This document shows, piece after piece, positions 45,398 to 64,000 of a stretch of DNA of 64,000 nucleotides. A program made the position numbers and the translations under genes. How positions within the stretch are numbered: position 1 is the stretch's first letter; every line of letters begins with the position of its first letter. The DNA comes from a virus. Its lineage: Duplodnaviria; Heunggongvirae; Uroviricota; Caudoviricetes. The notes under the pieces are model-generated. The model searched no databases, had not been told where the DNA came from, and saw only the letters and a list, made by a program, of their open reading frames with translations. The stretch covers positions 42,433-106,432 of the IMG/VR virus record IMGVR_UViG_3300025319_000008; one strand, given 5' to 3'.

Positions 45398-45937
45398 TTA
45401 TTTTTTAGTTTTTGATTTTTTTACGATTTTGATTTTTTTCTCAAATAAAACTTCTCTTGTTATGATTGGAGTTATTTTGTACATTTCACCTAAAAGAGTT
45501 TTTATTACTTTCACTTCCTCTTGAGATTGATATGCTTTATTAGTAAGCTCTCTTGAAAGATAAAATAAAAAAGCATTTTCATATACAACACCGTCAAACA
45601 TTTTATTAAAATCTTCAAAAAGAACAACTTCATTAATTAGCTCTACTGTGCCAGCTAATCCAAAGTTTAAATTTTCACAAATAGATATTTGTCCATCTGA
45701 CCTTATATTGAATATTAAAATTTGAATATTGTTCCCTTTATCATCTTTTATTGTTTGTAAATTTTGAAATGGAAATTCCAAGCTTAAATGATTAAAAAAA
45801 CAAAGTGATTGCTGTGGATTTATATGAATATGTGAATATAGCATTCCCATCTCTTGTAAGCTTGACATTATGCTTGGTATGACGTTCTCTCTTAATACCA
45901 TGAACATTTCTTGGAATAACGTTATTTTCTTGCTCAT
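45398..45937 (-). CDS. hypothetical protein ending in ITREVLFEK
   Basis: 179-aa ORF. Confidence 0.45.
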   Translation of the reverse strand: MSKKITLFQEMFMVLRENVIPSIMSSLQEMGMLYSHIHINPQQSLCFFNHLSLEFPFQNLQTIKDDKGNNIQILIFNIRSDGQISICENLNFGLAGTVELINEVVLFEDFNKMFDGVVYENAFLFYLSRELTNKAYQSQEEVKVIKTLLGEMYKITPIITREVLFEKKIKIVKKSKTKK

Positions 45938-46455
45938 TATTTTATTTTTTCTAATAATACTTTTCTTGTTTCTATATTATTTAAATCCATATTTGGACTA
46001 AGACCTAAAATTTTCTTTATAGCTCCAACGCTACAATTTTCTGGTACTTCATGATTTTCAATCTCCTGTAAAGCACACATTCCAAGTTTTAAAACATAAG
46101 AATTATTAAGTATTCTACAAAGCTCATTTATTGCTGTATTTTTGTTGTCAAAATTAAAATCTAATGTTTCTGGTTCTACTCTTTGTAAATGTTCTAACAT
46201 TATGTGACCAAGGGACGCCCTTACTCTTATTTTGGAAACAGTACAACGTTCAAAAAATCCATCCTTATTTATTGCAACATAAAAATAAATTTCATATCCA
46301 TCGGTATTCAAACGTATATTTTCTTTAAGAAGAAAAAAATTTGGATTCCATTGATCTTTTTCAGGTGATAAAAGTCTATAATAACCAATTAATTTAGGAA
46401 TAAATTCATTAAACAATTTTTCTAAAATTAATCTTTTTACAGTTTCTGAATCCAT
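45937..46455 (-). CDS. hypothetical protein
   Basis: 172-aa ORF. Confidence 0.45.
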   Translation of the reverse strand: MDSETVKRLILEKLFNEFIPKLIGYYRLLSPEKDQWNPNFFLLKENIRLNTDGYEIYFYVAINKDGFFERCTVSKIRVRASLGHIMLEHLQRVEPETLDFNFDNKNTAINELCRILNNSYVLKLGMCALQEIENHEVPENCSVGAIKKILGLSPNMDLNNIETRKVLLEKIK

Positions 46456-46457
46456 TT

Positions 46458-46736
46458 TTAATAAAATTTGAATTTTTCAACTAAAACTTCTCTTGTTATT
46501 ATTGGATTCCTTGAAGTTTCCTTAAAGGTTTCTAATGACCATTCACCAGAAATTCCAATAATTTTTAGTCCTGTTATTTCTTCGGGATAATATACGCCGG
46601 ACATTTTCCCCCAAAATGCTTCTTTTTTAATAACTTCGCTTATTTGTACTTTTGTTCCTTTATGAAAAATTATTCTTCCAGATTCACTGAATATTTCATC
46701 TTTAATAGTAACTACATCACCGCATGCTATGTCCAT
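46458..46736 (-). CDS. hypothetical protein ending in ITREVLVEKFKFY
   Basis: 92-aa ORF. Confidence 0.4.
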   Translation of the reverse strand: MDIACGDVVTIKDEIFSESGRIIFHKGTKVQISEVIKKEAFWGKMSGVYYPEEITGLKIIGISGEWSLETFKETSRNPIITREVLVEKFKFY

Positions 46737-46943
46737 TTAAATGTTTTTTATGACGTAAAATAAGCTTATAATAATTCCTAACGCTTCAAATAAAACAAAT
46801 AAAAAATTAAATAAAAAACTGCTTATATTAATAGTTTCTAGCGTTATGCTGTTTGCCATGCCAACGTAGCCTGAAACAAGTCCAAGTGAACAACAAATTA
46901 TTCCTATTATCCCAAGTGTAAATTGTCTAGTTTCTTTATTCAT
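46737..46943 (-). CDS. small membrane protein
   Basis: Two TM helices. Confidence 0.3.
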   Translation of the reverse strand: MNKETRQFTLGIIGIICCSLGLVSGYVGMANSITLETINISSFLFNFLFVLFEALGIIISLFYVIKNI

Positions 46944-46951
46944 ATTTTTAT

Positions 46952-47227
46952 TTATTTTGATATTGTCATTAAAAGTTCTAAAATATTATGGACAGCTTCT
47001 GAATTGCTTTTGCAGTTCTCATCTGTAAACCAGGCATTTTTACCATCATCTTCACCGCGACCTCCAATAGCAGAACTCATAGTTTTTATATGAGAAGAAA
47101 CTAAAAGTCCACCATCTCCTTTGCAATTAACTTCGAAATGACCTAATTTGGATTTTATAATGTAAATTATATCATCATTATCTGATGTTGATTTTAATTC
47201 AATACTAATATTTGATTTAGTTTTCAT
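46952..47227 (-). CDS. hypothetical protein
   Basis: 91-aa ORF. Confidence 0.35.
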   Translation of the reverse strand: MKTKSNISIELKSTSDNDDIIYIIKSKLGHFEVNCKGDGGLLVSSHIKTMSSAIGGRGEDDGKNAWFTDENCKSNSEAVHNILELLMTISK

Positions 47228-47228
47228 A

Positions 47229-47600
47229 TTAATTTTTTTTTATTGGCACATTATATCTTTCCTTAAACCAGCCAATTGGAATATCAACTCCATCTTTTGT
47301 GGCTTTATCTTGTATGTCGTCCCAAATATCTTCTGGCTCTACAATTACAGCATACTTTTTAAAACCTCCTCTATTACAGTGAATTCCTTCCGGCTCTATG
47401 TATACTTCCTCAATCTCAAATTCCACTTCTTTGCCTTCTGGGTTTAGTGTTAAACTATCCATGTCTGTTTCATCTGGATGCAGTGGTAATAGTTCTACTA
47501 TTTCTGAACATGTTCTTCCTGGCATTCCATGGAAACATGGATCTTTTATCCAATGTTTTATTACCCAGACATTTCCTATTTTAGTTAGTGTTCCTTTCAT
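47229..47600 (-). CDS. hypothetical protein
   Basis: 123-aa ORF. Confidence 0.4.
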   Translation of the reverse strand: MKGTLTKIGNVWVIKHWIKDPCFHGMPGRTCSEIVELLPLHPDETDMDSLTLNPEGKEVEFEIEEVYIEPEGIHCNRGGFKKYAVIVEPEDIWDDIQDKATKDGVDIPIGWFKERYNVPIKKN

Positions 47601-48072
47601 GATTGTTATTTTTTAATTGTTCTAAATACCCAGTATCTTCTGTTTGTGGATTTCTTGATGACATAGCAACTGCTAAAACATCACATTTTTCATTTTCCTC
47701 ATGTCCATTATGTCCTTTTACCCATGAAAATTCAATATTTGGAAAACTCCTATACAAATTTAGGAGCCGAATGAAAAGGTCAGCATTAGTCCTTTTATAA
47801 AATCCTTCTCTTTCCCAGTTATATATCCATCCTTTATCAAAAGAATCTATAACATACTTTGAATCCGAATAAATTATAACTTTTTTATCTTTTGTTTTAA
47901 TTGCTTCTAAACCAATTATAACTGCCATAAGCTCCATTCTGTTGTTTGTTGTAAGCTTATATCCGGAACTTAATTCTTTTTTATTTCCTTTATATTCAAG
48001 TATGCAAGCACAGCCTCCATAACCAGGATTTTTTAGGCAACTTCCGTCTGTGTATAAGTTTATTATTTCCAT
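47581..48072 (-). CDS. rnhA: ribonuclease HI
   Basis: YTDGSCLKNPGYGG, DSKYVI, VKGHNGHEENEKCDVLA: the RNase H DEDD signature. Confidence 0.85.
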   Translation of the reverse strand: MEIINLYTDGSCLKNPGYGGCACILEYKGNKKELSSGYKLTTNNRMELMAVIIGLEAIKTKDKKVIIYSDSKYVIDSFDKGWIYNWEREGFYKRTNADLFIRLLNLYRSFPNIEFSWVKGHNGHEENEKCDVLAVAMSSRNPQTEDTGYLEQLKNNNHERNTN

Positions 48073-48171
48073 TGTATTTAATTAAACGAAGATAATAAAA
48101 TTTTGTTATTAATTGTTTGAAATGTAAGAAAAATATGTTTTATTTACAGAATCAATAAATTAATAGTGTAA

Positions 48172-48915
48172 ATGAAAAAAACCAAAATTGTATTAATGAG
48201 TGATAGTCACTCAAAGCACAATGGAATATATATACTTAAACAAGGAGAGAAATTTGATGATGAATATGTAAAAGAATACATTATCTCTGGAGTTTATTTA
48301 CCTGCAGAAGCCGACGTAATTATATGTTCAGGAGATATTTCTATGAGTGGAAGCGAAAATGAGATTGATAATTTTTTAGCATGGTATTCAAAACTTCCAT
48401 ATACTCATAAGATTTTAGTTCCAGGAAATCATGACCGACTTTTTGAACAAAAAAGAAGCATAGCTCAAGAATTATTAAAAAAATATCCAAATATTATTTA
48501 TCTTGAAAGTCAAGGCGTTACTATTGATGGAATTAAATTTTACGGAGAACCAGTTCAACCTACTTTTGGATATAATTGGGCGTTTAATGTTGATAGAGGA
48601 GAAAAGATAAAAAGATATTGGGATGCTATACCTGATGACGTTGAATTCTTAATACTTCATGGACCACCTTATTCTATTTTAGATTCTACTATTAGAGGAG
48701 AACAGGTTGGATGTAAAGATTTACTAAAAAGGATATATGAATTGAAAAATTTGAAGCTTGTAAGTTTTGGACACATTCACGAGCATGCCGGATATAAATT
48801 CATAGATGGAGTTCATTTTGTGAATGCATCTGTTTTAAATCTTAGATATGAAATTCAAAATAAACCTATGATTTTTGAAATTGATGAAAATAAAAATATA
48901 ACAAGAATTGAATAA
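48172..48915 (+). CDS. calcineurin-like metallophosphoesterase
   Basis: GDISMSG and GNHD motifs plus a downstream GH..HE region. Confidence 0.7.
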   Translation: MKKTKIVLMSDSHSKHNGIYILKQGEKFDDEYVKEYIISGVYLPAEADVIICSGDISMSGSENEIDNFLAWYSKLPYTHKILVPGNHDRLFEQKRSIAQELLKKYPNIIYLESQGVTIDGIKFYGEPVQPTFGYNWAFNVDRGEKIKRYWDAIPDDVEFLILHGPPYSILDSTIRGEQVGCKDLLKRIYELKNLKLVSFGHIHEHAGYKFIDGVHFVNASVLNLRYEIQNKPMIFEIDENKNITRIE

Positions 48916-48971
48916 TGCAAAAATTTTCTATTATAAACACCAAAACAGCATTAAAGTACAAAAATTTTCTA

Positions 48972-49298
48972 TTATAACTCTCTTTTTTTGGCTCTTTCTT
49001 GAAAATCTCGAGCTTTAATTTTTTCTGCTATTATTTCTGATCTTGGTATAATTTGTACGGTTAATGATTTTATTTCCTTACCATGTTTGTGCCATCTTAA
49101 ATAACATACTCTATTAAATATTGATCTTTCTATACAAGAAGGGAAGCCGTTAAAACTATGTAATTCATCATTCCTATCATTCCAACGAATTGCCCAATAA
49201 CTAACAACTGGCTCTTTGAATTTTTCAATTAAGACTCCATGTAAAGTTGGTATATCAATATTTAAATTGGTGTATAAATTTTCGCTATTCTTATTCAT
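48972..49298 (-). CDS. hypothetical protein with an ELHSFNGFPS repeat unit and an HGVLIEK motif
   Basis: 108-aa ORF. Confidence 0.4.
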   Translation of the reverse strand: MNKNSENLYTNLNIDIPTLHGVLIEKFKEPVVSYWAIRWNDRNDELHSFNGFPSCIERSIFNRVCYLRWHKHGKEIKSLTVQIIPRSEIIAEKIKARDFQERAKKREL

Positions 49299-49797
49299 TT
49301 GCTAATAGTTCTAACTTTTTGAATTCTGAACTTAAAAAACGTTTGATAATATCAAAATCTTTTTCGAAATTTTTAGAATTTCCACTATTATATTTTTTCA
49401 TTAAAATTTTCACTTCACCTACTGATTTTAAACAAATAGATAAAACTGAAAGGTACCAATGTATAAACTCAGGAATTTTTAAATTTTTTGATTTTTCTGA
49501 ATAATTACAGTCAAATATTGATGCTACATTAAGTGCGTCACTGTTGTTTTTTTCTCCAAAGTTATGAAATACAAACGAGGAATTAGATTCATCTTTTGGG
49601 GAAATTATAAAAAAAATTATTTTTTTACTTGTTTCGTTTATTGCAATCATCATATAATAGTCCATATAAATAACATCTGTCCATCCTGCGTCATTTACTA
49701 TATCTAAAAACAATTCAGCGCTTTTGTTTCTCTTTTCGAAAAGGACAAATCTATGATAAGGTTGATTAATTACATATTGATTTAAATGCTCGGTCAT
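49291..49797 (-). CDS. hypothetical protein with an HRFVLFEK motif
   Basis: 168-aa ORF. Confidence 0.4.
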   Translation of the reverse strand: MTEHLNQYVINQPYHRFVLFEKRNKSAELFLDIVNDAGWTDVIYMDYYMMIAINETSKKIIFFIISPKDESNSSFVFHNFGEKNNSDALNVASIFDCNYSEKSKNLKIPEFIHWYLSVLSICLKSVGEVKILMKKYNSGNSKNFEKDFDIIKRFLSSEFKKLELLANE

Positions 49798-49798
49798 T

Positions 49799-50077
49799 TT
49801 AAAAACCTAATAGTTCACCCATTTGAAATTCTATAATATCAAAGAACCCTTTTGGCTGTTTACTGATTCTTCCATATTCAAGTATATCAATTCTTTCGCC
49901 ATTAAATATACTATGATAGCCCTCAATATAATTATTTTTGAGTTGAATTAAAAAATCATTAAACTCATATTCGTTTACGGTTCCAATTTTTTCTCCATCA
50001 GGATTGTATAAATCAACTGTTGGAGGAGTTATTCTATTTATTTTCATAATCTTTTTCTTTGAAATTAAATGGTTCAT
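49799..50077 (-). CDS. hypothetical protein
   Basis: 92-aa ORF. Confidence 0.35.
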   Translation of the reverse strand: MNHLISKKKIMKINRITPPTVDLYNPDGEKIGTVNEYEFNDFLIQLKNNYIEGYHSIFNGERIDILEYGRISKQPKGFFDIIEFQMGELLGF

Positions 50078-50342
50078 TTATTTTTTCAATAATAACAAAA
50101 CGTTTATTTGCCGGATTTGGACTAAAATAATCTTGTATGCGATACATTCCGGCTTGTTTATAGTATTGTTTGGTAAATCGGAGTTGTGGTTTTTCAAAAC
50201 CAAAAAACCGTCCTTGATTATCTAAGATGTGTATAAAATCATGATTTTTGTCTGACCTGATTTCATATAATTTATTTCTCGTAAAAGCATTTCCTTTATA
50301 CGTTGATTTGTAAAGAGTTTTTATACATCTTAATTTAATCAT
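50034..50342 (-). CDS. small protein, tandem paralog 1 of 3 (ends NPANKRFVIIEK...)
   Basis: MIKLRCIK start; homologous to the next two genes. Confidence 0.45.
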   Translation of the reverse strand: MIKLRCIKTLYKSTYKGNAFTRNKLYEIRSDKNHDFIHILDNQGRFFGFEKPQLRFTKQYYKQAGMYRIQDYFSPNPANKRFVIIEKINEPFNFKEKDYENK

Positions 50343-50604
50343 TTAGTTGCTTTAATTTAAAATTAAATGGTTCACTTGTTTTTTCGAAAATAACAAATCT
50401 TTTATTAGCTGGATTCGGATTAAAATATTTAAATACATAATGAAAATAAGAGCCGGAAATTTTGCTAAAACTTATTTCTCTTCCTCTATTATCTAAAAGT
50501 TCAATAAAATGTCCATCTTGATATGTGATTTTATAATTTTTACCCAATGTAAAAGATTTATAATCTACTTCATAAAGCCGTTTTATACACTCTAATTTAA
50601 TCAT
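50335..50604 (-). CDS. small protein, tandem paralog 2 of 3
   Basis: MIKLECIK start; ...NPANKRFVIFEK. Confidence 0.45.
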   Translation of the reverse strand: MIKLECIKRLYEVDYKSFTLGKNYKITYQDGHFIELLDNRGREISFSKISGSYFHYVFKYFNPNPANKRFVIFEKTSEPFNFKLKQLND

Positions 50605-50887
50605 TTAAATCGAATAATTTTATAAACTTTTTTAAATTAGATGTTCTACATTTCTTCTCAAAAATAACGAAGCGTTTATTTGATTCAAAGAAGTCATCTA
50701 CCCAACAACAAAAACCTTCTGGATCATATTCTAATGCGAAAATATAAGGTTGACCGTTATTATTTAATATAGAAATAGTATATTCTTCAATTGAATGTAT
50801 TGTATAGCTTGTACCTATTTCAAAAGCTGTTTTTGAAAAACCTGTTCCGCATGTGATATAGTTTTTTATACATCTTAATTTAAGCAT
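50597..50887 (-). CDS. small protein, tandem paralog 3 of 3
   Basis: MLKLRCIK start; ...NKRFVIFEK. Confidence 0.45.
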   Translation of the reverse strand: MLKLRCIKNYITCGTGFSKTAFEIGTSYTIHSIEEYTISILNNNGQPYIFALEYDPEGFCCWVDDFFESNKRFVIFEKKCRTSNLKKFIKLFDLND

Positions 50888-50900
50888 TCTTATCGTATGA

Positions 50901-51218
50901 TTAAGAATTTAGATTAATAAAATCCCAAATTCCACTTTCGTTATTTCTGCCGTAAACACATTGTATCGCTTCTTCAAAAATATAATGTTCGCCATCTTTC
51001 AGTCGCTTATTTTCGGGGTCTTGTTTGCTGTCCAAATATTGCTCACATAATTTTATCAACGAGCTAAAATCAGGATTAGCACTTAGCTTCGGTCTTGTGC
51101 CTCTAATTTCTTTGTAAGTTTCGGGTGCATCAGAATAAATTGTTTTTAGCAATCCCGATTTTTCCAATGTGTCGAACTCTTTTTCTGTTAGTTCTCTAAG
51201 TGATTTTACTTTTTCCAT
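50901..51218 (-). CDS. hypothetical protein
   Basis: 105-aa ORF. Confidence 0.4.
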   Translation of the reverse strand: MEKVKSLRELTEKEFDTLEKSGLLKTIYSDAPETYKEIRGTRPKLSANPDFSSLIKLCEQYLDSKQDPENKRLKDGEHYIFEEAIQCVYGRNNESGIWDFINLNS

Positions 51219-51293
51219 TTGTTTGATTCTTAATTTATGAATTTTTTAATTATCCCTTAAATTGTCGGACGCGACAAGTAATAGAAACAAACG

Positions 51294-51569
51294 CTATACA
51301 CCTGTTTCAATTCCACATTCTCTTACATTTCTAATGTCAACGTTTTTTTCTCCATCATTTAAAATTAACTGTGAATATTTCACACCAAATATAATCCCAT
51401 ATCTCACAAAATATGTTCCTCTGTGTGGTTCTACATAATCAACATAACATATTTTTTTGCCAATATTCGCTTTTATATTTTCTTTTGTTAGCTGAAATGG
51501 TTCATAGCCCTTTTCACATTTTTCGTTTTCAAAATCAAGTAATTTTCCCATAACTATGTTTGTTTTCAT
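51294..51569 (-). CDS. hypothetical protein
   Basis: 91-aa ORF. Confidence 0.35.
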   Translation of the reverse strand: MKTNIVMGKLLDFENEKCEKGYEPFQLTKENIKANIGKKICYVDYVEPHRGTYFVRYGIIFGVKYSQLILNDGEKNVDIRNVRECGIETGV

Positions 51570-51692
51570 TATTTAAACGAAAAACATGTTAAAATGTTTA
51601 AATCTTCTCGATTAATACAATTCTCTCAATCTTAGTAAATTCAAAAAACTGATTTCTGAATTTTTCTTGAGCTTTTTCAAATTCTTCTCTTG

Positions 51693-52025
51693 TTATTTCT
51701 TTTTTAAAAAAACATAGAGTGCATTATCTAAGAATTCTTTATGATCTTTATAAAATTTTGATGCACATTTTGTATTATCTATTTTAAAATAATCAATAAT
51801 GCCATAATTGCAATAATCATCAAACGCATCTTCTTCAATTCCGGATTTTTTGCAGTACGAATAGGTTATTGCGTTAACGTTGTCATTTTTCCAAAATTTA
51901 CCAACAAACATTTTATCAAAATTATCTCTTACGAATTTGTTTTTTTTATTTTGTAATTCTGAACGCTTAGTTTCAAGTTCAAAAATTTCATTTTTTAAAC
52001 TGTCATATGTTTTTTTTATATCCAT
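51693..52025 (-). CDS. hypothetical protein
   Basis: ORF track start 52073; the internal Met at 52025 removes the overlap. Confidence 0.35.
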   Translation of the reverse strand: MDIKKTYDSLKNEIFELETKRSELQNKKNKFVRDNFDKMFVGKFWKNDNVNAITYSYCKKSGIEEDAFDDYCNYGIIDYFKIDNTKCASKFYKDHKEFLDNALYVFLKKK

Positions 52026-52030
52026 AATTG

Positions 52031-52264
52031 CTATTCCTCGTTTATTGTGCAGACAATGAAAGCATGCTTCCATTTATTTTTACAAAAATCGCTGTCTCTG
52101 TAATTTTTTGCTTTTTCGTATGTGTTTAATCCTTGTGTTATTTGCTCCCAGTTATCTTCGTTATTTCTTGCAACTACGAAAAATAAACAAGGCATAACAA
52201 CACGCCAAGAAGTAGAGCCTTCTGCTTCATTAGAAATATTTGTGGCTGTATTATCTTTTATCAT
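52031..52264 (-). CDS. hypothetical protein
   Basis: 77-aa ORF. Confidence 0.3.
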   Translation of the reverse strand: MIKDNTATNISNEAEGSTSWRVVMPCLFFVVARNNEDNWEQITQGLNTYEKAKNYRDSDFCKNKWKHAFIVCTINEE

Positions 52265-52446
52265 AATATAATTGGTCGCTTTTTTGGATAAAACTTCTTA
52301 GCCTCTTTCATGTATGCATCTATGATTTCTTGTTCAATAACACTGTCTTTAACGTTAAACAAATACAATAACTGTTCAGTAGCTTGTGATACTGTTATTT
52401 TCATGTCATTTAGTTCTGTGCAAATATTTCTTATTTTTTCTTCCAT
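52261..52446 (-). CDS. hypothetical protein
   Basis: 61-aa ORF. Confidence 0.3.
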   Translation of the reverse strand: MEEKIRNICTELNDMKITVSQATEQLLYLFNVKDSVIEQEIIDAYMKEAKKFYPKKRPIIL

Positions 52447-52460
52447 ATCGATACTTGTTT

Positions 52461-52937
52461 TTAATTACCATTTTTTTCTATTAAAACTTCTCTTGTTGGT
52501 GAAAACTCAGGTCTATCTCTACATTCTGCACACAATACATAAACCCAACCATTATCTATATACTCAACATTATTATTGCTTCCACAATCCATACAAGTGT
52601 TAGCACATTCTTTTACTGCTTCTGTAATTATATCATCAATTTCTTTACCAAAGTATCCATAAATTCTTAATGAGCCATATTTTTCTTTAATATCTTGTAT
52701 TATTTGACTGCCTGTGAGTTTGTTTCTTAGGTTGTATGCCCACCAAAATTTAATACGGACAACGGAGCCTCCGGTGGCCAAAAAATGGATGGCTCTCATA
52801 ATAAATCGCGGCATCCACCACTGTTTCCACATTACTTTTTCTATTCTTACCAAGTGTTTCTCTACTACTGGTTTCCAATGTCTGGGCACACCTGCGTAAC
52901 TATTTCCTATGTGACGATATTTTTTGCTAAATTCCAT
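52461..52937 (-). CDS. hypothetical zinc-ribbon protein ending in PTREVLIEKNGN
   Basis: CMDC...CAEC; 158 aa. Confidence 0.45.
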   Translation of the reverse strand: MEFSKKYRHIGNSYAGVPRHWKPVVEKHLVRIEKVMWKQWWMPRFIMRAIHFLATGGSVVRIKFWWAYNLRNKLTGSQIIQDIKEKYGSLRIYGYFGKEIDDIITEAVKECANTCMDCGSNNNVEYIDNGWVYVLCAECRDRPEFSPTREVLIEKNGN

Positions 52938-53008
52938 GACGCAAATAAAACAAAAAACCCCCTAAAAAGCAAATTTTAGGAGGAGAAATATAATTATATT
53001 AAAATAAG

Positions 53009-53215
53009 TTATCTACAAATTTTGTGGCCAGTTCCATTATTAAGTGAATATGGAATGTTTTTACAACTATGACTATCATTGCAAACTAATTTACCTAAAA
53101 ATTCGGTACCAGATTTAGTAACAATAACTTTATAGCCCCATTCGCTTTTTAACTTTTGACCAACAAAAATTGGTTTTCCATTATCATCCTTGTAACCGGT
53201 AAATTCTTTTTTCAT
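53009..53215 (-). CDS. hypothetical protein
   Basis: 68-aa ORF. Confidence 0.3.
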   Translation of the reverse strand: MKKEFTGYKDDNGKPIFVGQKLKSEWGYKVIVTKSGTEFLGKLVCNDSHSCKNIPYSLNNGTGHKICR

Positions 53216-54287: not shown

Positions 54288-54292
54288 TTGTT

Positions 54293-56055: not shown

Positions 56056-56099
56056 ATTATTTGTTATTTAATACTAAATAGGTACTAAAAAAGTAAAAC

Positions 56100-56252
56100 T
56101 CACATATTGTTAGAAATATGTTCTTTAATAAGTTTTTCTATTAATTTAGATTTGTTAATATTATTATCCTCACAAAATTGATTAAATTTATCAATTGTAC
56201 TTTCTTTAATTGTTGTATTAACTCTTTCGCGTCTTTGTTTTTTTGTTTTCAT
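56100..56252 (-). CDS. small ribbon-helix-helix DNA-binding protein, paralog of 55906..56055
   Basis: 50-aa ORF: MKTKKQRRERVNTTIKESTIDKFNQFCEDNNINKSKLIEKLIKEHISNNM. Confidence 0.45.
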   Translation of the reverse strand: MKTKKQRRERVNTTIKESTIDKFNQFCEDNNINKSKLIEKLIKEHISNNM

Positions 56253-56302
56253 AATTTAAAATTAACCTATTTGTTTATAAAAAGCAACCCTATTTATTTA
56301 AG

Positions 56303-57289
56303 ATGAAAAAAGATAAAAATATATCTCTCTTAATAAAAGAAATTAGAAGCATTTTATTAACTGAGGCTAAAAATACCGATATTATAGTAAATAAAATAGG
56401 TCTTCCTTCTGAAATTTCTGAATGGCTCACAAATGATTACAACGAGAAGTTTCAGCTGTGGATAGCAAACAACTTCAAAAAAGAGGCTGTCAAAAGAATT
56501 TCTGGAGGCAAAGAAATAGTTGCAAATATTATGATTAAAATGCTAAAAGGAGATAAAACACAATCTTCTTTAAAAATACAACTCAATAGACAAAAATTAT
56601 ATTTTCAAGGAGTTTTTCAATTAGTTGTTACGTGGCTTCAAAATAGAAGAGAAATTTCACCAGAAACTGATGAGATTAATTTAAATACTCTCACATTTGA
56701 ACTGGCAGTACAAAGAGCAGATATCTGGCACGAAAAAGTACAGAGATTAAAAGCAGAACAAATTACAGATGAAAGTGGGAAAATAATTAAAACATATCCA
56801 GACGGATTTTATTGGCTTGATTTACAAACAGGAAATTGTAGAGCTGAAGCTAATGCGATGGGACATTGCGGACAAGCTGGAGCAAGTGGAACATTGTATT
56901 CATTTAGAAAAAATCGTCAACCATATCTAACAGGAGAAGTAAATAAAATTAATGGAGTTTTAGTTCAACTAAGAGGAAGGGCAAATACAAAACCAAAAGT
57001 AGAATATCACGATAGGATAATGGACTTTTTACTCGAGCCTAAAGTTGGTGTTATTTCTTTTTCGCCAAGTACTTATAGACCTGACGCTAACTTTGAACTT
57101 AAGGACTTAAATTTAAATCAAATAATTCAATTATATTCCCAAAAACCAACCCTTTTTTCAGAAAATGAATTATATAAAGTTTTATTGAAATATCCAGATT
57201 TCGCTACTCAGGTTAATTTTAGGGTTACTCCATTGCACGAAGACCAAAAAGAAAATTTTAAAAGAAGATATCCAAATATTCAGATTTAA
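56303..57289 (+). CDS. hypothetical protein
   Basis: 328-aa ORF. Confidence 0.5.
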   Translation: MKKDKNISLLIKEIRSILLTEAKNTDIIVNKIGLPSEISEWLTNDYNEKFQLWIANNFKKEAVKRISGGKEIVANIMIKMLKGDKTQSSLKIQLNRQKLYFQGVFQLVVTWLQNRREISPETDEINLNTLTFELAVQRADIWHEKVQRLKAEQITDESGKIIKTYPDGFYWLDLQTGNCRAEANAMGHCGQAGASGTLYSFRKNRQPYLTGEVNKINGVLVQLRGRANTKPKVEYHDRIMDFLLEPKVGVISFSPSTYRPDANFELKDLNLNQIIQLYSQKPTLFSENELYKVLLKYPDFATQVNFRVTPLHEDQKENFKRRYPNIQI

Positions 57290-57601
57290 TCAATGTTCTA
57301 AATTGTTATCATTTACATCTTCTTGGGTTATATTAAGTGCTCTTAATATATAATGTGAGCTAAAAAGTGAATCATTGTTGATTGTGTTTCTTAAATGTTC
57401 ATTCAAAAATTGCCACACCCCTATATTGAGTTTGCTTGTTTTTTCAATTAATACTTTTCTTGTAAGCGCCTCCGGTTTTTCTTCTTCTACTTTTTCATAT
57501 TTAGATAAATCATCGAGTAAATTTTTTGAATATAAATCAAATGTTGAAGTGTTAATCCAATCATTTAAAAACTTATCTATTATTTTTTTATTGTGTGGCA
57601 T
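57290..57601 (-). CDS. hypothetical protein with a TRKVLIEK motif
   Basis: 103-aa ORF. Confidence 0.4.
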   Translation of the reverse strand: MPHNKKIIDKFLNDWINTSTFDLYSKNLLDDLSKYEKVEEEKPEALTRKVLIEKTSKLNIGVWQFLNEHLRNTINNDSLFSSHYILRALNITQEDVNDNNLEH

Positions 57602-57604
57602 TAG

Positions 57605-57805
57605 CTATTTTTTAAGTAGAATTTTTTGTATTTCAACAAACCAATAATTGATAACTGGGCGTATTATTATAAAATACGCTATTGTGTAAGAAATAAACAT
57701 CTTAATATCGTACCAGCAAAAATCTATGATTAAAAAATATTGCCAAGAAATCAATCCAACAATTAATAAAATTAAAGAAATTATATATATAATTATGTAC
57801 TTCAT
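57605..57805 (-). CDS. small membrane protein
   Basis: Two TM helices. Confidence 0.3.
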   Translation of the reverse strand: MKYIIIYIISLILLIVGLISWQYFLIIDFCWYDIKMFISYTIAYFIIIRPVINYWFVEIQKILLKK

Positions 57806-58041
57806 TTTTTTTCGTTTAAAAAATTCAAATTAGGTGTTAGTACATAACCTTTTTTATCGTTTATTTCTGGCGGTATAATCATTTTAGGAGCCGGAAGTGG
57901 TTCTTTTTTCTTTTTTTCCTTAAGAAGATAAGGTGCTTTTTCTTTCGCCCACTCAATATATGAAGGATTAGTTTGTTTTACTATCTTATATGTAATCCCT
58001 GCGTATTTCCCGATTTTAAACACAAAGTCGTCGCTTATCAT
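57802..58041 (-). CDS. hypothetical protein
   Basis: 79-aa ORF. Confidence 0.35.
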   Translation of the reverse strand: MISDDFVFKIGKYAGITYKIVKQTNPSYIEWAKEKAPYLLKEKKKKEPLPAPKMIIPPEINDKKGYVLTPNLNFLNEKK

Positions 58042-58916
58042 ATTTTATTGTATTTTAAATAATAATCAGATAAGAATTCTCCACATGAAGATGAAACATC
58101 TTTTCCTGGAGGCTTGTAGTATTCTGTTTTAATTTCATTATTTTCAAGAAGGGTTCTAAAATGACCTATTCGTGATAATTCAGCCTTTCTGCTTTCACTT
58201 GTTTCTTTCTCGTTAAATCTAAGAAATTTAACAGGTATATCTCTATTTGTTAACATAACAAGAAGAGTACTCAAATCATTATTCGTATCATTTTCATCTT
58301 TAATTAGTGTATAATGAATTTCTACTGAATTGCCGGTAACTTGTTTATAAAATTCAAGAGCTGCAATGCTGGCTTTAATATTTAAAGCATTCGGCATTGA
58401 TTTATTCCTTTGATCATCTTTTGTATAGTGAAGAGAAAGATGCACTTTGAGTGGAATTTTATGAAAATTAACATAACTTGCAAGGGTGAAAATGTTTTTC
58501 CATTGACCTTTAGGTAGACTGGTTGCTAAGCCAAATCTAACATTTTCATAATGTCCTTTAAGTAACCTCATACTTTCGGTTACATTATCAATATTAAGAA
58601 GAGGCTCGCCAATTCCCATATAAGAAATCAAAAGAGCTCTGTTGTTATCTTTTAATTTTAAATCATCATAAATATAATCAACCGGTTCTGTCATTTCCCA
58701 ATTACTAAGGTTTCTCAATTTTAGTTTACCTATATAATCTGTTAAGTGACAAAAAGTGCAACCCATAGCGCAAAGCGTTTGACAACTTATACAAATAATA
58801 TCTTTGCCGGTATTATTATCGATATAAGTTGCTTCTGAAATTAAACCGTCTTTTAATTTAAAAACATACTTAATTGTTTTATCCTGTGTTGATTTAACTT
58901 TTTCTAATAATTTCAT
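58038..58916 (-). CDS. radical SAM enzyme, RlmN/Cfr-like
   Basis: CISCQTLCAMGCTFCHLTD: the Cx3Cx2C cluster sits in an RlmN-like context (cf. CVSSQVGCALECKFCST). Confidence 0.55.
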   Translation of the reverse strand: MKLLEKVKSTQDKTIKYVFKLKDGLISEATYIDNNTGKDIICISCQTLCAMGCTFCHLTDYIGKLKLRNLSNWEMTEPVDYIYDDLKLKDNNRALLISYMGIGEPLLNIDNVTESMRLLKGHYENVRFGLATSLPKGQWKNIFTLASYVNFHKIPLKVHLSLHYTKDDQRNKSMPNALNIKASIAALEFYKQVTGNSVEIHYTLIKDENDTNNDLSTLLVMLTNRDIPVKFLRFNEKETSESRKAELSRIGHFRTLLENNEIKTEYYKPPGKDVSSSCGEFLSDYYLKYNKI

Positions 58917-58918
58917 AT

Positions 58919-59875
58919 TTAATTCGTTTTGTTTTTATAAATTTCTCTCACTAAATCAACATCAAGCACATTTGCACTTAACAATTGTTCATGATTTCCA
59001 TATCTTGCACCATCAATTATATGTAAATCTCTATCATTTATTTGAGGATTTAAAATTCCGTCCCATCTACCTCCAAGCATTGGTTTATAAGAATAAACTT
59101 GCTCCTTAGTGACTTTGGAATCATCCAATAATAATTTTACAACATAGTTGTGTTTATTAGCAATTTTTAGGAGTAACCATTTTAAAATAGTTTTTGATAT
59201 TGAATTTTTTGAATAATGTATTTTCCAAGCTATCTGAGTCATTGTATAAGATGGGAACAATGCATTACCAACAATTTTTTGCCATTTAGTTTTAACTGGT
59301 TTAGGTGTGGAACAAAATTCTTCTTGGCTCAATTCCGGAGAAAACGGCGCTATTAAATAACAAAATTTTTGCCATAATACATTTATGCTCATTAAAGATA
59401 TTTCAACAATTGGTGACAAAATTTTCGCCCACCATATGCCGGAAACAGCTCTTGACCACAACCATAAATCTAATGTTTGATTATACTTCTCACTGAGTTT
59501 CCAATTAACATGAGTAACAAATTCTTTAACTTCACCTTCGGTATGATTAGATGCAATGAGCGTTAAAATTGTATTCAAATAATGGTCTCTTGATAGAGTT
59601 TTATCATCATGTGAAGGAAATCTATAGCCTTGGTAATAATAACCATGTTCACTTTCTAGATCTATTTCAACCCAACAACTTTTAATAGCATCCACAAAAC
59701 GTTTATCTCGATATGTGTAATATGCCTCAAATGTTCTTCCTATTGAATCTCCTTTACCTAAATCACCGGTTGAATCCCACAATTGGTTAATTTGTAGCAT
59801 CATGTGGTATTCTGGGTCAACAAAATAACAAGTTCCTACGGCATCGAAATTGAAATTATTTGTATTATTACTCAT
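58919..59875 (-). CDS. hypothetical protein
   Basis: 318-aa ORF; contains LGGRWDG, as does 14782..15831. Confidence 0.5.
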   Translation of the reverse strand: MSNNTNNFNFDAVGTCYFVDPEYHMMLQINQLWDSTGDLGKGDSIGRTFEAYYTYRDKRFVDAIKSCWVEIDLESEHGYYYQGYRFPSHDDKTLSRDHYLNTILTLIASNHTEGEVKEFVTHVNWKLSEKYNQTLDLWLWSRAVSGIWWAKILSPIVEISLMSINVLWQKFCYLIAPFSPELSQEEFCSTPKPVKTKWQKIVGNALFPSYTMTQIAWKIHYSKNSISKTILKWLLLKIANKHNYVVKLLLDDSKVTKEQVYSYKPMLGGRWDGILNPQINDRDLHIIDGARYGNHEQLLSANVLDVDLVREIYKNKTN

Positions 59876-60144
59876 ATGATGAATTTTTCTAATAATATGT
59901 TAATGTTATCTGTTATGAATTCTTTATCATGAATACTAATTTCAGTATCATCCACAACTTCTTTAATGCAATTTTTAAGAACAATCTTTGGATTAAATAA
60001 TGAATAAGTGTGTTCTGTTTTTGAAAATACTGAGAAATCCTCAGTTATCAAATCTCTCACACAAATTTCGCTTTCATTCACACCAAGAATTTCAAATGCG
60101 TTTCTTTCATTTGTTGTTATTATATTTCCTTTTTTAAATATCAT
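59872..60144 (-). CDS. hypothetical protein
   Basis: 90-aa ORF. Confidence 0.35.
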   Translation of the reverse strand: MIFKKGNIITTNERNAFEILGVNESEICVRDLITEDFSVFSKTEHTYSLFNPKIVLKNCIKEVVDDTEISIHDKEFITDNINILLEKFII

Positions 60145-60145
60145 T

Positions 60146-60628
60146 TTAATTATTTTTTTCTATTAATACTTCTCGAGTTGGTGAAAATATTGGAAGTTCT
60201 TCTATTTTGCTTCTTAATTCTTCGTATTTTTTTTCTTCATCCAACAATTCTTGCATTGTGCATTTAATTTGTTCAAACCATTCAGAGTAAATTTCTGGTC
60301 TTGAATTTATGAATTTAATTTCTCCGCATATAAAATATATAAATGGGTCTTCTAATTGTTCTAGAGATATGTTATTTAAAGGTACATAACCAATATTTTT
60401 AATGAGAATATTTTTTTCTGTGATTGTATAAAATTGAATTTTTTCACTTTCACTTTCATTTATAAGTAATTTAAAATTACCAAATTTTTCGTGCTTTATT
60501 ATTATTTCTAATTTATTTACCGATAACATCAATTCTGATAGTTTTCTATAAATCATATCGCACATATCGTATTGTGTATCAAATAAAACTCTTTTTGTTT
60601 TTAAGGATGATTTCTTTTGCTTGCTCAT
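60146..60628 (-). CDS. hypothetical protein ending in SPTREVLIEKNN
   Basis: 160-aa ORF. Confidence 0.45.
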   Translation of the reverse strand: MSKQKKSSLKTKRVLFDTQYDMCDMIYRKLSELMLSVNKLEIIIKHEKFGNFKLLINESESEKIQFYTITEKNILIKNIGYVPLNNISLEQLEDPFIYFICGEIKFINSRPEIYSEWFEQIKCTMQELLDEEKKYEELRSKIEELPIFSPTREVLIEKNN

Positions 60629-60655
60629 GTGAAAACAAAGATAAATAATTTTTTG

Positions 60656-61420
60656 TTAAGAGCGAATAAAATCTCTAAGTTTTTCAGAGCCTTCAAAATT
60701 TGTTGCGAATACATATTCTAATGCAGAATATATATTATTTTCTGCACTCCTTGGTCCGGAAGAAAATTCCAATTCCTCAACGGAAGATTCTAATGCTGGT
60801 TTTTTACTTGTAACATATCCAGCAACGCATCTAAAAGGAAGAGGAAAAACTCTCTTTGCATATCCTATTCCGATTATGCGGTCATAAAACTTTGCATCAT
60901 CGAATGGGTCTGATGTTCTTGTGTCAATATTGCCGTAATATCGTAACCAAGATGCTTCTTGGTCGGCGTACTTATTTAATTCTTCTTTTGTCATTTTTCT
61001 GTTTTCTGTAATGAAATTTAAATATGGCCGAACACCTTCAAGTATAAATTTTGTTCTTGTTTTTTCTATAAGTACTTTTCTTTCAGCAAGTCCTTCTGGT
61101 TGACCAGGTATTGAATACCATATAACTTCGTTGTCTCTAACTATTGCCATTCCGTTTTGTTCTTTAATATTAACATGATTAACAAGTCCATATTCATGAC
61201 AAAAATTTACCCAATATAATTTATAATAAAATATATCTCCGGTTATAACGAAATTACAGCCAGTCTTTTTTCTTATGCTTCTTGCTTGAGCTTTATTAAT
61301 GATTGGTTTTCTAAAATCGGGATGAAATTTAGCGTGTGAATGGGATTCATCATGATGAATAGAAAGAGTATTATTAAATTCATTTAGTGCTGGATATCGG
61401 TATAATCTACTGTTGTTCAT
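60656..61420 (-). CDS. hypothetical protein with an internal ERKVLIEK motif
   Basis: 254-aa ORF; its first 12 codons are tandemly duplicated upstream. Confidence 0.5.
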   Translation of the reverse strand: MNNSRLYRYPALNEFNNTLSIHHDESHSHAKFHPDFRKPIINKAQARSIRKKTGCNFVITGDIFYYKLYWVNFCHEYGLVNHVNIKEQNGMAIVRDNEVIWYSIPGQPEGLAERKVLIEKTRTKFILEGVRPYLNFITENRKMTKEELNKYADQEASWLRYYGNIDTRTSDPFDDAKFYDRIIGIGYAKRVFPLPFRCVAGYVTSKKPALESSVEELEFSSGPRSAENNIYSALEYVFATNFEGSEKLRDFIRS

Positions 61421-61456
61421 TGAATAGTGCTGGATATTGGTATAATCTACTGTTGT

Positions 61457-61876
61457 TCATCGAAGTAATAATCTAAGATTATTAAAGCTAAATGTTTCCA
61501 TCCAATCAATTTCTTCAATTAATTTAAATTTTTCTATTAAAACTTTTCTTTCTAAAGATAAAATAGAGTTCCTTTTTAATTCTACTTTTAATATTGATTT
61601 TGGAAGTCCATGTATTATTCCCGAACATTCTACAAAACCAATAGCAGTTCCGGAACGTCTTTGTTCTGAAAAATCATAAATTCCTAAACCGTATTTATCT
61701 GTAAATTTCCTATTTGTGCATGACATAACACCAATAAATTCATCTTTAAAAAACACATCAACAGATATAGAACCTTCTTTATTTTGTGTGGCATTTTTAA
61801 ATGAAAAATCTCCACATTGCTTTGACCATTTTTTCTTTGGTTTGCTATTTTTGGTTCTTTTCATTTTACTGCTCAA
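61457..61876 (-). CDS. hypothetical protein (ERKVLIEK), paralog of 61873..62310
   Basis: Shares the WxxxxGDFxFKxAT...FIG core with the next gene. Confidence 0.4.
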   Translation of the reverse strand: MSSKMKRTKNSKPKKKWSKQCGDFSFKNATQNKEGSISVDVFFKDEFIGVMSCTNRKFTDKYGLGIYDFSEQRRSGTAIGFVECSGIIHGLPKSILKVELKRNSILSLERKVLIEKFKLIEEIDWMETFSFNNLRLLLR

Positions 61877-62310
61877 AATAATTCGCCATGGTTTAACTCT
61901 CTCAAAATAACATCAAGAGTAACAAATTTAAGCTTTTCTGGATATTTTTCAAATAATATTTTTCTAATTGAAACCATGTCTGATTTATCAGCAAATAATT
62001 CTGCTTTAATTATTGTGGTTGGGAAATTGCTTCTTAATCCAATGCAAAACACATTACCAATTGGTTGTTTTCCTCCATTAGCAAAATCATATGCACTATA
62101 TTTAGTTCCTGAATCTTCTTTTGAGAAAATTTCCAACTTTTGAATGTTATTTTTTGATCTATAAAATGGCACTATACAATCCCCTATAAAATCGTTTTTA
62201 TACCACACTTCAAATGATTTTTTGCCGGCAGGATGATAAGTAGCTTTTTTAAATTCAAAATCTCCTAAAGTGAAATGCCATTTATTTTTTACTCTTTTTC
62301 TTCTTGTCAT
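61873..62310 (-). CDS. hypothetical protein (IRKILFEK), paralog of 61457..61876
   Basis: 145-aa ORF. Confidence 0.4.
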   Translation of the reverse strand: MTRRKRVKNKWHFTLGDFEFKKATYHPAGKKSFEVWYKNDFIGDCIVPFYRSKNNIQKLEIFSKEDSGTKYSAYDFANGGKQPIGNVFCIGLRSNFPTTIIKAELFADKSDMVSIRKILFEKYPEKLKFVTLDVILRELNHGELF

Positions 62311-62650
62311 CCGACTTTATTTCTTTTTTAATATCATCAAACATCTCTTTGAGATATTTTTTATTTTCAGCGCTTATTCTTTTATTGTCAGCAATAAGCT
62401 CTTCGATTTCTTTATTGCTCATTCCAAGGAGTCCAATCACTGACTCAGCAAGTTTTATATGACCAGTGCAATATCCAGAAGTATAACTAAGTCCAGTTTG
62501 AATTTCAATGTGATACGCTTTATGAATTTCTTTATTGATTCCATTTTTGCGAATGTCGCTCAGCTGTTCTTCTTGATTTTTAAGAGTTTTTTTAATTCCT
62601 TTTAAATCTTCTGTAAGAATTCCAATTATTAATTTTTCTTTTTTTTCCAT
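62282..62650 (-). CDS. hypothetical protein
   Basis: 122-aa ORF. Confidence 0.4.
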   Translation of the reverse strand: MEKKEKLIIGILTEDLKGIKKTLKNQEEQLSDIRKNGINKEIHKAYHIEIQTGLSYTSGYCTGHIKLAESVIGLLGMSNKEIEELIADNKRISAENKKYLKEMFDDIKKEIKSDDKKKKSKK

Positions 62651-62654
62651 GGTA

Positions 62655-62981
62655 TTATTTATTGAGAACTTTGTTTATGATTAATCTTAAATTATCTTTT
62701 TCAAATAAGACTTTTCTTTCCTGGCAAAGATACTCTTTTTTAAATTGATTATAACTCATTTCGTTCCTAAATTCACCTTCTGAAATTCCATCTTCTGCGA
62801 ATTCAGAACATGAATGAAAATAAGCGTCACATAAATCACACCAATAAGTAGTTCCGAATACTCCATCTTCAACTCCTACCACATATGTCATAATTCTTCC
62901 AATTGGCACAATATCCAAACAACCAAAACATTTTCTCGGCTTTCTTATTTTTACTTCTTTGTTTTTTAGTATGTTATACAT
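62655..62981 (-). CDS. hypothetical Cys-rich protein with a QERKVLFEK motif
   Basis: CFGC...CDLCDAYFHSC. Confidence 0.4.
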   Translation of the reverse strand: MYNILKNKEVKIRKPRKCFGCLDIVPIGRIMTYVVGVEDGVFGTTYWCDLCDAYFHSCSEFAEDGISEGEFRNEMSYNQFKKEYLCQERKVLFEKDNLRLIINKVLNK

Positions 62982-63494
62982 TTACCAATTATTACATTTT
63001 TCGAACAATACCTTTCTTGTGCTTTCTGCAATTAATATTTTTTGTTTAAAGTCTTTTGTTCTTTGTGCGGACAAACTTCTGTGAAAAGAACAATCTTCAT
63101 TGTGATTGATAAATCCAACACTTGTTTTTTTGATTATTTTATGAGGGAATTTTATTTTCGGTTTAATCCATTCAATAATTTCAGTATGACGTATTGGAAT
63201 AAAAAAAGTATAATACCCATCCGAAAGCAAAAACCTATAAATTCCATGAGTTTCTTGTATTTCTTCTATCATACAATCGTATGGCTCAAATAAGTATTCT
63301 GAAAACCAATATTCCTGTTTTTTGCCAGTAATTTTTTTCACTAAAGCCAATAAAAAATTACAGCTCGCAACAGCTCTATCACAATGTTGTTTTGGGACTC
63401 CTCCACCATCTCTATGCCATTTATCCAATATCCTTTTATCAGCATAAAATCTGAACTTGAAAATAAAATAATCTTTACACTTAAGGTAGTTCAT
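62982..63494 (-). CDS. hypothetical protein ending in STRKVLFEKCNNW
   Basis: 170-aa ORF. Confidence 0.45.
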   Translation of the reverse strand: MNYLKCKDYFIFKFRFYADKRILDKWHRDGGGVPKQHCDRAVASCNFLLALVKKITGKKQEYWFSEYLFEPYDCMIEEIQETHGIYRFLLSDGYYTFFIPIRHTEIIEWIKPKIKFPHKIIKKTSVGFINHNEDCSFHRSLSAQRTKDFKQKILIAESTRKVLFEKCNNW

Positions 63495-64000
63495 GATTTA
63501 GCTAAAAATTTTTGAAATTTTTGGAGTTCTTTTATTCTTGTTTTTTTTCCTGCTTGTTTTTCAATACTCATATTTCCTCTAAATAAATTTTCTTGTATTT
63601 TCTTTATTAGTAATGGAATATATTTTTTTAATGAAATTAAAACATCTTCTTCTGAAGAACATATAAGTTTATCACCAGACGAATGACCTCCATATAAATG
63701 AAAAGTATTTAATGTATTATTTGTATCTAAAAAAACATGCATCATTGTATGAATTTCACGAAATTTCCCTTTTTTATCGAAAAAAAATATTTTACTCCCA
63801 TTTTCTAATATTTCTGGGACTAAAGAAATTATATATCTTTCTATAACAAGACTATTAGCGTCTATCACCCATACGTATTCACCGGGAGCTACTATCGAAT
63901 TGCGGTAATTTTCTAAAACTTTTTTTAAAGGATATTCTTTATAAATAAATTTTTCAACAAGCACTCTTCTTTTCTGTGGAAAGTTAATTAAATTAGGAGG
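63491..64000 (-). CDS. hypothetical protein, 5' end beyond the window (KRRVLVEKF motif near the N-terminus)
   Basis: The reading frame stays open upstream of the GTG at 63964 to the window edge. Confidence 0.4.
   Translation of the reverse strand, partial: PPNLINFPQKRRVLVEKFIYKEYPLKKVLENYRNSIVAPGEYVWVIDANSLVIERYIISLVPEILENGSKIFFFDKKGKFREIHTMMHVFLDTNNTLNTFHLYGGHSSGDKLICSSEEDVLISLKKYIPLLIKKIQENLFRGNMSIEKQAGKKTRIKELQKFQKFLAKS

Follow-up and report, generated by a model that had tools for sequence, protein, structure and literature searches.

A stretch of 64,000 nucleotides from the tailed-phage record IMGVR_UViG_3300025319_000008 (positions 42,433 to 106,432; referred to as the window) encodes a short peptide, R-x-V-L-[IF]-E-K, which recurs in small and for the most part unrelated proteins. 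This peptide, denoted the tag, is very likely a genuine signal that is recognised in trans, and it probably serves as an address label read by one factor common to all carriers. Among the destinations considered, the assembling head of a T4-type phage is favoured; to this mechanism as a whole, capsid targeting combined with prohead cleavage, we assign a probability of about 0.3.

Recurrence and distribution of the tag

In the 109 called proteins of the window (20,362 amino acids) there are 21 matches to the strict pattern R-x-V-[LI]-[IFVL]-E-K, whereas 2000 within-protein shuffles yielded 0.012 on average and never more than 1, which corresponds to a more than 1000-fold enrichment. With the loose pattern [RK]-x-[VI]-[LIV]-[IFVLT]-E-K, 23 matches are found in called proteins versus 0.30 in shuffles. 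A six-frame scan with the loose pattern gives 25 matches, all 25 in the sense frame of an open reading frame (ORF), on plus-strand genes at 12–30 kb and minus-strand genes at 35–64 kb; a third-order Markov simulation of the DNA produced 0.8 such matches. A position-specific matrix detects 23 sites at 17.7–30.2 bits, below which the range down to 10 bits is empty (in shuffled proteins, 0.4 sites score 10 bits or more). The score distribution is thus bimodal, and no decayed copies appear in the matrix scan of the window.

On these counts the recurrent peptide in small ORFs described in the original prediction is real, and nearly all of its coordinates hold, the exception being the copy in 48972..49298, which is a variant with H for R (HGVLIEK). 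Four carriers or sites had been overlooked (13955..14293, 30266..30712, 45937..46455 and 51604..51624), and the placement at 45–64 kb was too narrow: since the overlooked copies include those at 14258 and 30362, the motif spans 12–64 kb of the window, and further copies follow past its end (locus L001). The weak variants suspected in 27989..28387 (RIVLTEK) and 12015..12689 (RSVIVEK) are present as well.

For comparison the window was pooled with related loci (L numbers); the relatives include a 518 kb relative (IMG/VR contig IMGVR_UViG_3300014205_000170) and a 212 kb contig (IMGVR_UViG_3300025319_000005). The pooled set comprises 340 genes, 86 tags and 83 tagged proteins; 24% of the genes are tagged and the largest carrier has 316 amino acids. 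The consensus of the 86 copies is x-T-R-[K/E/F]-V-[L/I]-[I/F]-E-K-[Y/F]; the tag measures 8–10 residues, with a fixed order of V/I/L, L/I, x and E and with invariant E and K. The copies in the window are listed below.

12114..12134, plus: RSVIVEK, weak variant; residues 34–40 of the 224-residue protein 12015..12689 (RNVLFEK in the orthologue of the 518 kb relative)
14258..14278, plus: RKVLVEK; 4 residues ahead of the stop of 13955..14293
15868..15888, plus: RKVLFEK; residues 12–18 of 15835..16404 (MITLHFPYKLE-RKVLFEK...)
17596..17616, plus: RVVLIEK; 2 residues ahead of the stop of 17398..17625
28196..28216, plus: RIVLTEK, lowest score (17.7 bits); internal in 27989..28387
30362..30382, plus: RKVLFEK; residues 33–39 of 30266..30712 (a homologous paralogue family in L100 is tagged at residues 9–15)
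35514..35534, minus: RIVLIEK; residues 14–20 of 35298..35573
36595..36615, minus: RVVLIEK; residues 11–17 of 36442..36645
45437..45457, minus: REVLFEK; 12 residues ahead of the stop of 45398..45937
45946..45966, minus: RKVLLEK; 2 residues ahead of the stop of 45937..46455
46473..46493, minus: REVLVEK; 4 residues ahead of the stop of 46458..46736
49221..49241, minus: HGVLIEK, degenerate (R to H); residues 20–26 of 48972..49298, a homologue of 12015..12689
49732..49752, minus: RFVLFEK; residues 16–22 of 49291..49797
50082..50102, minus: RFVIIEK; tandem paralogue 50034..50342
50380..50400, minus: RFVIFEK; tandem paralogue 50335..50604
50654..50674, minus: RFVIFEK; tandem paralogue 50597..50887
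51604..51624, minus: RIVLIEK; start-less frame of 33 codons, readable only as a −1 frameshift extension of 51693..52073
52473..52493, minus: REVLIEK; 3 residues ahead of the stop of 52461..52937
57440..57460, minus: RKVLIEK; internal, residues 48–54 of 103 in 57290..57601
60155..60175, minus: REVLIEK; 2 residues ahead of the stop of 60146..60628 (L014 orthologue REVIIEK-N-stop)
61061..61081, minus: RKVLIEK; junction of the two modules of 60656..61420
61529..61549, minus: RKVLIEK; 61457..61876, where alignable homology with paralogue and orthologue stops at the tag
61945..61965, minus: RKILFEK; 61873..62310
62697..62717, minus: RKVLFEK; 13 residues ahead of the stop of 62655..62981
62997..63017, minus: RKVLFEK; 4 residues ahead of the stop of 62982..63494 (orthologue, 36% identical, RKLLIEK-HHNG-stop)
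63950..63970, minus: RRVLVEK; near the N-terminus of a gene running off the window end (180 residues in L001; orthologue REVLFEK)

The window matches contig CACVIJ010000001.1 (assembly GCA_902731165.1; 503,412 bp), and its genes recur in many metagenome assemblies. The 518 kb relative is syntenic with the window (ClpC 78% identical) and keeps the tag in all five aligned orthologue pairs, for three of which identities of 32–36% were measured; at C-termini, RKVLFEK-CNNW-stop is paired with RKLLIEK-HHNG-stop, and REVLIEK-NN-stop with REVIIEK-N-stop. A search of related genomes, as recommended beforehand, thus finds the tag in this relative and in at least three further lineages, namely L031/L048, L100/L104 (the 212 kb contig) and L264–L273. 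L031 holds 10 tags in 12.7 kb and L100 holds 25 in 14.9 kb (22 of 37 genes tagged), and several short metagenome contigs have 2–6 copies each of the looser pattern. No strict-pattern match is found in 79 other T4-like capsid loci (840 kb), and the three six-frame matches in 79 other ClpC-encoding viral loci (1.39 Mb) correspond to the chance level. The deposited huge phages LR756502 (nearest by ClpC, 42 kb) and LR756508 (nearest by capsid protein, 40 kb) contain no tags, and megablast and tblastn searches of 50,697 phage records returned no relatives. Because the tag is kept in diverged orthologues and absent from the control loci, it is regarded as clade-specific and under strong purifying selection. 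Literature searches with peptide strings, huge-phage motifs and the assembly accession gave no description of the motif, in agreement with the earlier statement that no equivalent was known.

Conservation of the peptide and its position in the chain

At the nucleotide level the copies are conserved no further than the peptide requires. Within the motif the commonest synonymous codon is used in 117 of 175 cases, with 119.8 expected from genome codon usage, and the log-likelihood of the synonymous choices is ordinary; arginine is encoded by AGA, AGG, CGT, CGC and CGA, leucine by TTA, TTG, CTT and CTG. The DNA information of the aligned copies is three-periodic, being high at codon positions 1 and 2 and about 0–0.3 bits at most third positions, and a scan with a DNA matrix found no off-frame, antisense or untranslatable intergenic copies. 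The inference that the peptide rather than a DNA site is conserved, formerly drawn from differing codons, is thereby placed on a quantitative footing. A nucleotide element translated by chance, such as a promoter, a recombination site or a mobile mini-repeat, would be in keeping with the numerous copies near gene boundaries, and stop codons in the other frames of some codon versions could limit its frame; against the codon and matrix data, however, this explanation, like that of a dispersed repeat, is not supported and has practically no probability left.

Nor do the carriers form one family. An all-against-all BLASTP search links only 50034/50335/50597, 61457/61873, 12015/48972 and the last 23 residues of 52461/60146, and joint alignments of carriers reach mean column identities of 11% and 6%. 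The claim of unrelated flanking sequences therefore stands for most carriers, which are not alignable, but not for these four small sets. A single fast-evolving paralogous family with the motif as its best-conserved core could draw on the several small paralogue sets in the window and on the large paralogue families in L100. However, the tag lies 0 residues from the N-terminus in some proteins and 0 residues from the C-terminus in others, so that a shared domain would be confined to a few residues on either side, and the carriers span unrelated known folds (Tad3, Acb3 and the Gp23 N-terminal region). As the carriers are not alignable past the motif, this explanation is not supported either and is considered extremely improbable. 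Each of the three outcomes named beforehand as speaking against the tag has thus been tested: its frequency in shuffled sequences is far lower, the carriers are not one paralogous family, and conservation does not reside in the DNA. Recoded stop codons, which could have generated artificial small ORFs, were rejected, since the stops following C-terminal tags are nearly all TAA, with one TAG (at 14258).

The placement of the tag near the N-terminus, near the C-terminus or internally in small proteins, as initially described, is also seen in the pooled set. C-terminal copies (within 15 residues of the stop) number 28 of 86, compared with 12.4 ± 3.2 expected, a value reached in none of 10,000 random placements; N-terminal copies (within 20 residues of the start) number 26, compared with 15.5 ± 3.5; and the remaining 32 (37%) are internal. 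The termini are accordingly enriched 1.7- to 2.3-fold. In L038 the tag forms the literal C-terminus (...RKVLIEK-stop) and in L014 the literal N-terminus (M-RIVLIEK), and because it can be either, it is an autonomous linear motif. In L184, a locus of the 518 kb relative, the tag directly follows the start codon as well (M-RFVIFEK); this copy presumably belongs to the orthologue of 15835..16404 (L184:17565-18128), which suggests that the length of the leader would vary.

Internal copies are found at module junctions. The product of 60656..61420 (254 residues) has homologues of 140–146 residues that end about 20 residues past the tag, and the 518 kb relative encodes the halves of it as distinct ORFs; in 61457, 61873 and their orthologue the alignable sequence stops at the tag. 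The tag thus sits at exposed points of the chain, just after the start, just before the stop or between two modules. AlphaFold2 models gave a mean confidence (pLDDT) of 36 for 60656..61420 and of 55 for the protein P0014, a member of the capsid-like family described below, in which the tags lie in coil below 50; neither model supplied usable structural context.

These positions would also suit a short linear motif unconnected with the virion, by which many effectors are recruited to one abundant host or phage protein. Sliding-clamp-binding motifs likewise occur at the N-terminus, at the C-terminus or internally in unrelated proteins, and the tag shares this position independence with sliding-clamp motifs as well as PIP and APIM boxes, although it bears no sequence resemblance to them. 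The predicted low-confidence coil around the tags in the only usable model, the strong purifying selection in orthologues and the candidate frameshift described below, which would provide docked and free pools, are consistent with docking, though no observation contradicts it or points to it specifically. On the other hand, no candidate hub was identified and no peptide-binding domain was recognised among the larger window proteins scanned, seven fixed positions are long for a docking motif that arises repeatedly, and the proposal is a catch-all that makes few specific predictions. Hub docking is therefore given a low, though appreciable, probability.

Tagged proteins and the capsid-targeting reading

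Pfam and PHROGs scans of the window carriers returned one weak match to DUF6501 and three PHROGs without known function, and hence no informative family. In related contigs, by contrast, the tag forms the literal C-terminus of a homologue of the Thoeris inhibitor Tad3 and is internal in a homologue of the CBASS inhibitor Acb3, where it may be that family's own sequence. A tag-like RVVIFEK in an ATPase of L062 was considered as well; it may align with the Walker-B strand, but the alignment is not significant, and this candidate was dropped. In L100 (1220-5894 and 14157-14708) the paralogue family tagged at residues 9–15 ends in C-terminal tandem peptide repeats (LETHVKLEGYTP), and its window homologue 30266..30712 has a 12–13-residue repeat in common with the overlapping ORF 30681..30845 (region 30266..30845).

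In a 23-member family (P0005-P0027; 177–330 residues) the first 70 profile positions of the T4-type major capsid protein are reproduced, with a Pfam match to Gp23 above threshold. The copied region extends from a propeptide-like ...LLESQASQLINE... segment, present in one to three copies, to ...DLVSVQPLxLPTGLLFYMD. With its 'VQPM..PTG' part it corresponds to the region that holds the Gol peptide in T4. The copied region is closely bordered by two tags, one on its upstream and one on its downstream side; a portal-like fragment flanked by tags is present in two members as well, the order in P0021 being portal fragment, tag, capsid N-terminus, tag. The genes (e.g. L031:9946-10896, L048:2875-3450 and L104:9965-10783) do not belong to a head module but stand among nucleases, a Dcm methylase and a PcfJ-like gene. 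Their products could act as decoys or as modulators of assembly or of the protease.

Such arrangements, together with the fused and split versions of 60656..61420 and the paralogue homology that stops at the tag, would also be expected if the tag were the site of a dedicated, highly specific cytoplasmic protease that releases modules by cleavage between E and K, in the manner of a polyprotein and independently of the capsid. A run of seven fixed residues with Glu at its end is reminiscent of the recognition sites of specific viral proteases, 3C (LEVLFQ/GP) among them. With polyprotein sites and with encapsulin cargo-loading peptides the tag shares a terminal or inter-domain position, conservation at the protein level and the addressing or delimiting of unrelated modules, but these systems are unrelated to it and the likeness is one of analogy. 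The window yielded no candidate protease, and the removal of 0–4 C-terminal residues has no obvious use, yet those copies are equally conserved. Cytoplasmic processing is thus quite unlikely.

One copy of the tag can be read only through a change of frame, at the following site.

51699..51705, minus: A_AAA_AAG slippery heptamer, two codons before the stop of 51693..52073

The gene 51693..52073 (minus strand) ends in ...TTA AAA AAG AAA TAA, and a −1 slip on the heptamer would continue the chain as ...KK-EITREEFEKAQEKFRNQFFEFTKIERIVLIEKI, a 33-residue extension that ends in ERIVLIEKI-stop. The slippery run is identical in three other, independent assemblies; the RNA downstream of it has no significant structure (z = 0.5). 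The heptamer is a canonical −1 slippery sequence, and the site is a candidate programmed −1 frameshift that would give rise to tagged and untagged isoforms. Isoforms made by frameshifting are a device typical of phage assembly genes.

In the favoured reading, capsid targeting combined with prohead cleavage, one trans-acting reader would bind the extended peptide and all carriers would share one fate. The tag would be a functional analogue of the T4 capsid-targeting sequence (CTS), by which accessory and anti-defence proteins would be directed to the T4-type prohead during its assembly, to be packaged there and later injected along with the DNA. Its V-[L/I]-x-E core would constitute the site of a Glu-specific prohead protease cutting between E and K, which would remove leaders and tails and part fused modules from each other, while the invariant R and K would confer added binding specificity.

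This reading is favoured for several reasons. In T-even phages a conserved CTS is the sole feature common to highly diverse anti-defence internal proteins (PMC3012670), and the Tad3 and Acb3 homologues among the carriers may point toward a similar set; here, too, a short peptide is all that diverse, fast-evolving small proteins have in common. The hydrophobic-[L/I]-x-Glu core of the tag fits the logic of Glu-specific prohead proteases such as T4 gp21: giant-phage enzymes cut after x-x-E, that of SPN3US after A-x-E, with Val preferred at P4 (PMC10052503). In addition, capsid and portal relics are tagged, the carriers are small, relatives of this phage show homology to the T4-type capsid (Gp23), and the candidate frameshift isoforms would resemble the assembly-gene device. 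Among the three roles proposed originally, a degron, an L-x-E or capsid-targeting signal and a docking motif, it is by analogy the second that gains support, albeit indirectly.

A considerable body of observations weighs against it. There are no head genes in the window, and the search for a tagged head module by way of capsid homologues led only to ordinary T4-like or bS21-encoding phages without the tag, so that a T4-type head of the tagged phages is deduced from relics in sister lineages alone. The maturation site predicted for the capsid protein of this family itself, L-I-N-E, has neither the R nor the K found in the tag. In SPN3US, 13 of 14 prohead-protease cuts remove N-terminal propeptides, and C-termini are almost never processed by known prohead proteases (PMC10052503), whereas about a third of the tags lie within 15 residues of the C-terminus, some with 0–2 residues past K. 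With 22 of 37 genes tagged in L100, carriers greatly outnumber any known set of internal proteins, and the predicted structures are too poor to help. Tad and Acb proteins, being signal sponges, would be expected to be needed in large amounts, which does not fit delivery in small packaged doses. The T4 CTS itself, MKTYQEFIAE, is strictly N-terminal, whereas the tag may be N-terminal, C-terminal or internal, has an invariant R and K and marks tens of genes per genome region instead of a handful. Only the 26 N-terminal copies come within 20 residues of the start, whereas the T4 CTS is placed directly at the N-terminus (about 10 residues after Met); for this reason the tag is not classed as a member of the T4 CTS, though it is most like it.

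Degron and joining alternatives, neighbouring genes and significance

Recognised genes of the window encode an ART-PolyVal protein, a dCMP deaminase, an endonuclease-dUTPase fusion, a ClpC-like ATPase, ClpP, DnaJ, a PcfJ-like protein, a topoisomerase, Dam, a GIY-YIG nuclease, a radical-SAM protein and an SPFH protein. The ClpC-like ATPase and ClpP genes invoked in the original prediction are real and are kept in the closest relative. The ClpC-like protein (5965..7995) contains AAA_2, AAA_lid_9 and ClpB_D2-small domains and a UVR motif in its M-domain, while a Clp_N domain was not detected in it; ClpP (9070..9792) matches CLP_protease, and DnaJ (10869..12011) is full-length. The cluster 5965..12011 thus comprises, in order, the ClpC-like gene, an unrelated opposite-strand ORF of 313 residues, ClpP, a LAGLIDADG gene and DnaJ. 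It is syntenic in the 518 kb relative, where the opposite-strand ORF and the endonuclease gene have no tblastn match.

These genes bear on the possibility that the tag is a degron or adaptor signal for the phage ClpC-like unfoldase and ClpP, which would clear tagged early proteins on schedule, with recognition of the tag either direct or by way of an adaptor. The chaperone and protease genes accompany the tag in the window and, in synteny, in the relative, which is also tagged; copies of the tag are over-represented at chain ends, the places at which unfoldases take hold of substrates; and the carriers resemble early or accessory genes. MecA reads short peptide signals in ComK and ComS. Like the AAA+ degrons (ssrA-type tags, N- and C-motifs of ClpX, the MecA-ClpC signal), the tag is a short, often near-terminal peptide that would impose a common fate on unrelated proteins, and a ClpC-like/ClpP pair is encoded in the same window. 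It differs from them in being longer and sharper and in its frequent internal or duplicated occurrence, and other ClpC-encoding phage contigs lack it: around their ClpC homologues matches remain at the chance level given above. Further points against a degron are the missing Clp_N domain, the internal position of 37% of the copies and the two or three copies that flank a module in some proteins. Moreover, the ORF between ClpC and ClpP (8026..8967) is a poor adaptor candidate, because it has no tblastn match in the ClpC locus of the 518 kb relative (L184). Degradation by ClpC and ClpP is accordingly rather unlikely. Binding of the tag by DnaK/DnaJ was rejected: its Glu is invariant, and Hsp70 sites disfavour acidic residues.

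A broader and rather doubtful proposal regards the tag as a general protein-sorting or protein-joining code of this clade of huge phages, without a described counterpart. As a sorting code it might direct dozens of accessory proteins, by one universal address, to the same compartment or complex. As a joining code, ...V-L-x-E-K... might be a donor and acceptor site for a transpeptidase-like enzyme that cuts between E and K and re-joins modules post-translationally, which would explain why K is kept even at a literal C-terminus, why tags are found at module boundaries and why modules occur both fused and split.

Several neighbouring genes deserve mention in their own right. The ORF 4499..5857 combines a LAGLIDADG-type endonuclease (residues 91–289) with a dUTPase (residues 308–449); the endonuclease part looks like a mobile addition, since the 518 kb relative matches the dUTPase part alone. 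The LAGLIDADG ORF of the chaperone cluster (9959..10885, 308 residues; compared with L007:19383-20311) is intact in the window and in one assembly, while two ORFs (212 and 101 residues) are called in the NCBI contig, reflecting either a polymorphism or a decaying homing endonuclease gene. The paralogues 18492..19646 and 34194..35321 (375–384 residues, 47% identical) contain internally repeated treble-clef zinc-finger (DUF4379) units, and a related unit is found at the end of L104. On the minus strand, 20090..24197 contains two adjacent large ORFs (565 and 802 residues) that are partly alike and have no family matches save a weak one to sigma-70 region 4; the smaller is kept in the 518 kb relative, whose stored locus ends inside it. 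Genes related to NAD and ADP-ribose are abundant (PARG-like, NADAR, NAD synthase and ART-PolyVal; L001:1-757, L001:18708-19202, L007:271-2127 and window 1581..2744). They prompted the idea that the invariant Arg of the tag is modified, for which no evidence was found in these data.

Huge phages are to a large extent dark matter made up of small orphan genes, and the tag brings together, as a single functional class, roughly one in four of the small genes in the present sample, some of whose products belong to known anti-defence families. Should the tag prove to be a capsid address, it would define the injected arsenal of these uncultured phages and could be engineered as a portable packaging signal; a degron or docking function would instead expose a central control node of infection. 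With the help of the tag, metagenomes can be searched for further accessory and anti-defence proteins and, whichever reading is true, its reader can be sought directly by means of the tag peptide.

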